This document shows, piece by piece, positions 52,063 to 52,152 of a DNA stretch of 64,000 bases. The notes under the pieces are model-generated. The model was not told the origin of the DNA. It worked only from the letters and a program-made list of their open reading frames with translations, and did not search any database. The stretch is from Squalus acanthias (lineage: Eukaryota): the NCBI GenBank assembly GCA_030390025.1, contig JASTWF010000033.1, forward strand, positions 498,001 to 562,000, read 5' to 3'. Made by a program: the position numbers and the translations under genes. Numbering within the stretch: position 1 is the stretch's first letter; every line of letters starts with the position of its first letter.

Positions 52063-52152
52063 CGTCAGCTTTAGCTCAGCGGTTACTTCGTGATACCCCT
52101 TTAAAATTCTAAGCTCGAACCCTGTCTCACCGCGGGCGCTGCCTGGCGTTTT
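52063..52152 (+). ncRNA. Vault RNA-like gene, copy 2
   Basis: CGTCAGCTTTAGCTCAGCGGTTACTTCG..GCTCGAACC..CCGCGGGCGCTGCCTGGCG-TTTT; terminal stem CGTCAG/CTGGCG; TATA-like ~52030 and TGACGT 51984 upstream. Confidence 0.87.

Follow-up and report, generated by a model that had tools for sequence, protein, structure and literature searches.

Results

A putative vault RNA gene in the window

The window is the whole stretch of DNA analysed here, 64 kb long (C2561:498001-562000), from a genome of 3.71 Gb in 3882 contigs. The full 64-kb window was scanned against 4227 Rfam families, and the Vault family (RF00006) was matched at 52062-52153 on the forward strand, over positions 1-99 of the 99 of the model, with an E value of 2e-11. 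A vault-RNA-like Pol III gene had been proposed at this place in a preliminary description of the sequence, and the covariance model bears the proposal out, with 61.4 bits against a gathering score of 34 bits. The predicted gene, called copy B below, extends from 52062 to 52152 on the forward strand, its 5' end lying somewhere within 52061-52064. On that strand the 5' half of the closing stem, CGTCAG (52063-52068), is joined to the conserved 5' block GCTTTAGCTCAGCGGTTACTTCG (52068-52090), inside which lies TAGCTCAGCGG (52072-52082), taken to be box A by its consensus. A box B-like motif GCTCGAACC (52113-52121) lies in the box B-like region AGCTCGAACCC (52112-52122). The extra heptamer TGTCTCA (52123-52129) separates it from the 3' block CCGCGGGCGCTG, which contains CCGCGGGCGCT (52130-52140) and which, together with CTGGCG (52143-52148), the partner strand of the closing stem, occupies 52130-52148. 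Immediately 3' of the stem stands TTTT (52149-52152), a predicted Pol III terminator. The predicted RNA is ~88-92 nt long, within the range of ~86-141 nt for vault RNAs. Each of the motifs that had been named earlier (the blocks, the closing stem, TTTT, the TATA-like box and TGACGT) was found at its claimed position. By its sequence, the interval 52062-52152 is a true vault RNA gene, and the RNA family to which it belongs is a known one.

The box A core GCTCAGCGGTTAC is identical in 35 of 36 aligned genes, by construction, since the genes were chosen by that word; the 36th, the second of two protocadherin-linked genes described below, deviates from it at two positions. The extra TGTCTCA had also been noted before, as a possible mark of a distinct chondrichthyan subfamily, and it is real: unlike the RF00006 consensus, copy B has a 7-8 nt insert here, and the eight bases cugucuca occupy insert states of its Rfam alignment, after the box-B stem and ahead of the 3' block. 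TGTCTCA, or a form one or two letters off, is present in all 36 distinct copies aligned from this genome, the protocadherin-linked pair included.

Two departures from the common form were seen in copy B. Its box B-like region has C where the AGTTCGAACCC of most copies has T, and at 52062 it carries a C that disrupts a terminal pair present in most copies. Both would fit a reading in which copy B is a vtRNA pseudogene, silent or dying, as perhaps the whole array of the window is; it would be intact only through recent duplication, and the working genes would be the protocadherin-linked pair and/or the copies in arrays with intact tRNAs. We regard this as possible but rather unlikely. Against it, the TGACGT, the TATA box, box A, the closing stem and T4 of copy B are all intact, and the same box-B variant recurs in at least three other copies (L046, L047 and L048) on three contigs (C190, C513 and C933). 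Some functional tRNA genes also differ at the equivalent position, which means that the change does not necessarily disable the gene.

Of the 21 pairs of the RF00006 model, 20 form in copy B, where the 5' and 3' ends make an extended stem and the centre is variable. Across 36 distinct copies, 91% of the pair cells are standard, compared with 39-49% when the partners were slid. Covariation among these 36 copies was not above that of shuffles (two double-change pairs, equalled in 97 of 500 shuffles) because the copies are too similar. The single-sequence fold of copy B, with an MFE of -21.2 kcal/mol and a z of -0.11, was no stabler than those of shuffles.

Upstream promoter of copy B and its recurrence

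Upstream of copy B, on the same strand, lie a TATA-like box TTTATATT (52030-52037, about -32 from the gene start) and the CRE-like TGACGT (51984-51989, about -78). Further upstream, TGACTCC (51935-51941, about -128) is found in a conserved block at -165 to -115; we call it TRE-like by the TRE consensus. TGACTC occurs upstream of the second protocadherin-linked vault gene too. The signals were scored in 62 copies, a non-random set made up of the 30 best covariance-model matches, 20 picks for diversity, six copies found by a 14-mer only, four from two array samples and the two copies of the window. An exact TGACGT stands at -77 to -79 in 44 of the 62, a TATA-like word at -30 to -32 in 54, and T4 directly 3' of the stem likewise in 54; the 3' block was found in 58. 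All four signals occur together in 41 copies.

In its sequence, copy B has the parts of a hybrid Pol III promoter, that is, boxes A and B (the latter as the T-to-C variant) with a TATA-like box and a CRE-like element. According to the available sections of PMC7058938, PMC10498592 and PMC11185573, vault RNA genes have a hybrid type-2 Pol III promoter, in which a TATA box and a CRE-like proximal element upstream accompany the internal boxes A and B; conservation of that element is described in PMC7058938. The earlier statement that vault promoters combine internal A/B boxes with upstream elements agrees with what PMC7058938 and PMC10498592 say in these sections, and the same layout is seen at copy B.

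Contigs from runs X1 and X2, whose RNA origin is only guessed, span 51970-52298 and 52095-52300 and beyond, crossing the borders of the gene. Those from runs X3 and X4 reach only 51902-51948.

A second copy in a duplicated segment

A second vault RNA gene, copy A, is predicted at 39751-39844 on the forward strand (48.3 bits at 39751-39840). Its TGACGT (39673-39678) and its TATA-like TTTATATT (39719-39726) were found on the same strand. Copy A is visibly degraded: its closing stem is weakened (CGTCAT), its box B region is altered (TTTCGACCC) and a T-run comes only after GTG. This degradation in the same window adds to the case for a dying array. Copy B had been called the better-preserved copy, which is true inside the window (61.4 against 48.3 bits); elsewhere in the genome copies reach 62-66 bits.

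Self-BLAST placed each gene in a duplicated segment of ~3.1 kb on the forward strand, copy A in segment A (39120-42292) and copy B in segment B (51405-54497). Positions 39120-40642 match 51405-52955 at 82%, and 40709-42292 match 52954-54497 at 86%. The flanks of the two genes are about 90% identical across 600 nt on both sides.

Fragments of LTR, LINE and DDE transposons surround the vault genes, which would also suit a dying array. Between the two duplicated segments, an open frame of 864 aa at 47893-50487 (+) has RVT_1, RNase H-like and DUF7041 domains and is for that reason read as the pol fragment of an LTR-type retroelement. The window is rich in transposons altogether, with a DDE_Tnp_4 transposase fragment, several reverse-transcriptase fragments of LINE type and an endonuclease fragment (1159-1692 (+), 22582-23625, 43998-44642, 45690-46652 and 60912-61610). 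Tandem arrays were observed at 14672-16636 (18-bp unit, 109 copies), 18794-20538 (30-bp GA-rich unit, 60 copies), 24658-25439 (31-bp unit, 25 copies) and 32216-32638 (78-bp unit, 5.4 copies). A 217-bp module stands as a direct repeat on either side of copy B (51553-51769 and 52401-52620, 77% identity, 848-bp spacing), and it is seen again at 39251-39466, 40082-40309, 58291-58407 and other sites.

The tRNA repeat unit

The gene had been placed inside a tRNA cluster. Eight Rfam tRNA matches above threshold do lie in the window, but they score only 32-49 bits (25-49 bits for all tRNA matches in the window), and ARAGORN gave broken stems or wrong or odd anticodons for several of them. These low scores and defects indicate that most of the tRNAs in the window are decayed. 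The top match, at 35069-35142 on the reverse strand (49.4 bits), has the anticodon ACC on a body of the Val type; it is likely a one-step anticodon mutant pseudogene.

Around other vault copies, Rfam tRNA matches were found in 15 of 16 loci of 3 kb, many of them at 62-70 bits. In ten loci analysed with ARAGORN, a recurrent unit was observed: tRNA-Trp(CCA), ~445 nt, tRNA-Lys(CTT), ~540 nt, the vault RNA gene, ~1.26 kb, and tRNA-Val(AAC) on the opposite strand. The tRNA-Lys(CTT), ~540 nt upstream of the vault gene, is in place in seven of the ten loci, and so is the tRNA-Trp in seven. The earlier view that a vault RNA belongs to an amplified tRNA repeat unit is upheld by the matches at 15 of 16 loci and by this recurrent order of Trp, Lys, vault and Val. 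In the window, alignment revealed a decayed tRNA-Lys(CTT) relic at about 51435-51510 (+), upstream of copy B, as the homologue of the intact tRNA-Lys of better-kept units; it has many substitutions and gives no Rfam match. The corresponding relic of copy A has lost its anticodon arm. Well-kept units pair the vault gene with tRNAs, and in the window the tRNA partners are decayed whereas the vault gene and its TATA region are conserved.

The decay of the tRNA-Lys of this unit, and the scores of 25-49 bits for the tRNAs of the window against 62-70 bits in other units, fit an array that is no longer working. Since its tRNA neighbours are decayed and transposon fragments abound, the array of the window may be silent. 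The pattern of differences between copy B and the unit of L002 argues against plain decay of the gene itself. From -400 to +399, with the promoter and gene left out, the two agree at 438 of 522 aligned positions (84%), and the tRNA-Lys relic differs at about 12-13 of 73 nt (counted by hand), whereas the 5' and 3' blocks differ at just two of 69 aligned positions.

Copy number and genome distribution

A two-block pattern, GCTCAGCGGTTAC and CCGCGGGCGCT separated by a gap of 20-60 bases, had 112 exact matches in the genome, compared with none for the reversed control. Vault RNA genes with both conserved blocks intact are therefore present in at least 112 copies, a count perhaps inflated by uncollapsed haplotypes because some small contigs show the same order as contig C21. 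The 100 two-block matches listed are spread over 34 contigs, and nine of them are on the window's own contig. When the 14-mer AGCTCAGCGGTTAC of the 5' block was used alone, 171 matches were obtained against three for the control. This number overcounts recognisable genes, because only three (L053, L057 and L058) of six 14-mer-only matches scored above the Vault threshold; L055 was below it (29.8 bits), and L054 and L056 gave no match. All of 49 candidates scored with RF00006 were above the cut-off (53.8-66.4 bits), and 49 is a lower bound because the scored list omits the window's own copies.

Vault units recur every ~6.2 kb in arrays on C1901 and, 55-75 kb upstream of the window, at C2561:423748-442518; on C21 there are higher-order repeats of several different vault paralogues. 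In an alignment of 30 further copies from -130 to +130, the TGACGT/TATA region, the gene ends, the T-run and the downstream sequence are common to all, and it is mainly the centre that differs. The homology of these 30 copies to the window extends across entire 3-kb loci at 82-96% identity. Homology on both the upstream and the downstream side is retained in 48 of 52 aligned copies; in L033, L036, L041 and L051 the upstream homology is lost near the gene.

A high copy number would also be expected if copy B were a retropseudogene or the head of a SINE derived from a vault RNA or a tRNA, and not a discrete gene, and the loss of homology just upstream of those four copies is what retrocopies would show. 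We nevertheless consider this reading highly improbable, because 54 of 62 copies have T4 right at the end of the stem, with no tail, and because retroposition cannot co-duplicate an upstream promoter and multi-kb flanks, as is seen in 48 of 52. At copy B itself, the TTTT after the stem, the shared promoter and the multi-kb flank homology rule out a SINE head or retropseudogene. A SINE head was the alternative named in the preliminary description, and what was found instead is TTTT at the end of the stem and flanks shared among copies.

Spread over at least 34 contigs is also what a mobile element might produce. The vtRNA could have travelled as the passenger of a Helitron-like or other DNA-level carrier and not by plain segmental duplication; a core of ~1.3-1.7 kb is common to otherwise different unit types, and the 217-bp module flanks copy B as a direct repeat with 77% identity. 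This, too, seems improbable. Tandem and segmental duplication would account for the regular 6.2-kb arrays and for the higher-order repeats of C21; the units themselves are made up of tRNA genes in mosaic fashion, and an unsystematic look for transposase or terminal structures bounding the unit revealed none. Such duplication is the reading that we follow below.

Conservation of the promoter and divergence of the centre

Mean pairwise identity, gaps ignored, was determined by region for 19 non-redundant copies of the amplified clade. It can be seen that, first, identity is 0.80 far upstream and 0.84 downstream, and 0.89 from -170 to -21; within the latter it is 0.90 at -165 to -115 and 0.95 in the TATA region (-45 to -21). 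Secondly, it is 0.78 from -20 to -1, 0.96 in the 5' block and 0.93 in the 3' part, and the centre is the least conserved part (0.73). Matches to the 5' and 3' blocks were the means of choosing the loci, which in part accounts for the high identity of these blocks; the promoter figures are unaffected. The promoter is moderately more conserved than the far flanks (0.89 against 0.80-0.84).

At least eight central-domain classes, including short forms with the centre deleted, were distinguished by eye among the two-block matches listed, and the class of copy B was found again on C190 (twice), C513 and C933. When copy B was compared with L024, of the sister type closest to its subfamily, the flanks differed at 37 of 769 positions (4.8%) and the centre (window 52091-52112) at seven of 21 plus a 2-nt indel; by our own arithmetic, the probability of this excess is roughly 1e-4 at a uniform rate. 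The centre evolves in patches, for which micro-conversion, selection and a mutational hotspot are candidate causes. L052 is intermediate between the centres of copy B and L024, and L022 has another such patch.

Protocadherin-linked genes and the origin of the family

About 90 variable exons of clustered protocadherins were located on C3, from 196.65 to 198.68 Mb, and one match of the 14-mer lies inside this array, at C3:197479488. Two tandem Vault matches were found there, ~270 nt apart, scoring 62.3 and 46 bits and both carrying the ugucuca insert. The pair (L053, G000:C3:197478488-197480500) occupies a gap of ~38 kb that separates the variable exons at 197460021 and 197498126, and its two genes run antisense to the exons. 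Upstream of the second gene, the sequence aligns with the promoter of the amplified family from about -140, TGACTC, TGAATAAGAAAGGAGG and TTTATAT being common to both; ~35 nt of 3' flank align too, and the position of the CRE reads TCTCAT. The upstream region of the first gene could not be aligned with the family promoter.

Copy B is not linked to protocadherins: the window is on C2561 and the protocadherin array on C3, and a domain scan of the 64-kb window found no protocadherin exons. Such linkage is typical of gnathostome vtRNA-1 genes and does not define them. That known loci are mainly protocadherin-linked, as had been stated earlier, agrees with the available sections of the reviews PMC7058938 and PMC10491885, and this genome keeps such a locus as well.

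A maximum-likelihood tree was built from 51 rows over -145 to +215. At its base stand the two protocadherin-linked genes, outside the amplified clade. A group of eight copies from C3, C7, C29 and C680 includes none with a tRNA within 700 nt. The remaining structure is a clade of 41 copies (support 100/99) with two subfamilies, and copies A and B fall in different ones. The nearest relative of copy B is L048 on C933, at 98% identity, which would leave little time for decay if the gene were already dead and to that extent favours a dying copy kept intact by recent duplication. Because of its promoter homology with the amplified family, the second protocadherin-linked gene is likely the source of that family. 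The direction from the protocadherin locus to dispersed copies and on to the tRNA array is only a suggested one, because the tree has a midpoint root only and the basal rows are long-branched.

Discussion

In our view copy B is probably a vtRNA gene with a hybrid Pol III promoter, one of at least 112 copies that would descend from a protocadherin-linked gene multiplied together with a tRNA array. In such a gene, TFIIIC would bind the internal boxes A and B, the TATA box would position the TBP-containing TFIIIB, and Pol III would transcribe an RNA of ~90 nt that ends in the T-run. The 5' and 3' ends of this RNA would pair as the panhandle of the family around a variable central loop, and by homology the RNA may act as a vault-particle RNA and/or a free riboregulator. 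As for the origin, the protocadherin-linked vtRNA gene may have been copied with its promoter, at the DNA level, into an array that came to hold tRNA-Trp, tRNA-Lys, vtRNA and tRNA-Val, and the vtRNA would then have multiplied together with the array by tandem and segmental duplication. Profile scans for the MVP domains PF01505 and PF11978 gave no match in this genome and none in the control genomes alike, so that the zero does not speak against MVP here.

A bolder proposal, which we put forward tentatively and hold to be somewhat less probable than its opposite, is that dozens to more than 100 promoter-bearing vtRNA genes are co-amplified and co-expressed with tRNA arrays, and that their central classes, at least eight in number, diverge in patches much faster than the flanks. 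They would then make up a multi-isoform family of riboregulators under diversifying pressure, the largest vault RNA repertoire noted to date.

The closest known relatives are human VTRNA1-1, VTRNA1-2 and VTRNA1-3 and mouse Vaultrc5, the protocadherin/ZMAT2-linked vault RNA genes. Copy B resembles them in its 5' block with box A, its 3' block, its panhandle stem, its variable centre and its length of ~90 nt. Its terminator, a T-run, is also like theirs, as is the hybrid Pol III promoter in which a TATA-like box is joined by a CRE-like proximal element. As at those loci, a protocadherin-linked pair is present in this genome. Unlike them, copy B lies in a tRNA-gene repeat unit without protocadherin linkage, in a family of at least 112 copies.

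Vault RNAs are usually single- or few-copy genes, and their function is still debated. In the available sections of the literature, the number of vtRNA genes is given as one in mouse and three plus one in human (PMC7058938, PMC10491885, PMC11185573); most mammals have one, at the protocadherin locus, with small local clusters in few lineages and four genes in human (PMC10491885, PMC7058938). An avian survey recorded, in the part available, nine Vault matches in human and a median of zero in birds (PMC4378963). More than 100 candidate vtRNA genes, summed across all deuterostome genomes studied, are cited in PMC10491885. The present family may be compared with the lineage-specific small clusters and off-locus paralogues of Stadler et al. 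2009 (via PMC10491885, PMC7058938), local duplications of vtRNA genes in several lineages; as far as those are described there, it differs from them in that one genome alone has more than 100 copies, which lie away from the protocadherin locus and are linked with tRNA arrays.

The human tRNA tandem repeat at 1q23.3 has a unit of 7.3 kb, according to the accessible text of PMC4041453. The arrays described here are like those of the 1q23.3 type in having tandem multi-kb units with several Pol III genes, some members decaying (PMC4041453). Unlike the latter, which are described as tRNA-only in that text, they have a vtRNA gene with its own upstream promoter as a fixed member of the unit. Comparison may also be made with nc886/VTRNA2-1 at the TGFBI-SMAD5 locus, which shares the vault-like fold and a similar type of promoter; that locus, however, is eutherian, and its RNA has been removed from the vault RNA class according to the sections available (PMC10498592).

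In the literature searched, with subscription journals and genome-paper supplements outside the search, no report was found of vtRNA amplification in sharks, of a family of this size or of vtRNA in tRNA arrays. The gene family itself is known; its amplification to this scale, its association with tRNA arrays and the survival of a probable source locus among the protocadherin genes appear to be new. In automated annotation of this genome with Rfam, the genes may already carry the vault label. For annotation, such matches should be kept as vault RNA genes, without SINE-like repeat masking. The locus also offers a concrete route by which tRNA arrays could capture and multiply a Pol III gene with an external promoter.

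With more than 100 promoter-bearing copies, this genome is a natural experiment, on dosage as well as on what the variable central domain does. Mice without their sole vault RNA copy develop normally, according to the available part of PMC11185573, and the central domain of vtRNA has been implicated in p62 binding in mammals (PMC10498592, PMC11185573, available sections).

Short vault variants of ~75 nt, in which the centre is deleted, were also observed (L040, L042, L051 and matches such as G000:C21:10075217), and they recur on several contigs. L040 and L042 keep the TATA box and the terminator, with a mutated CRE (TGACGA). L051 keeps the terminator and has lost the upstream promoter homology.
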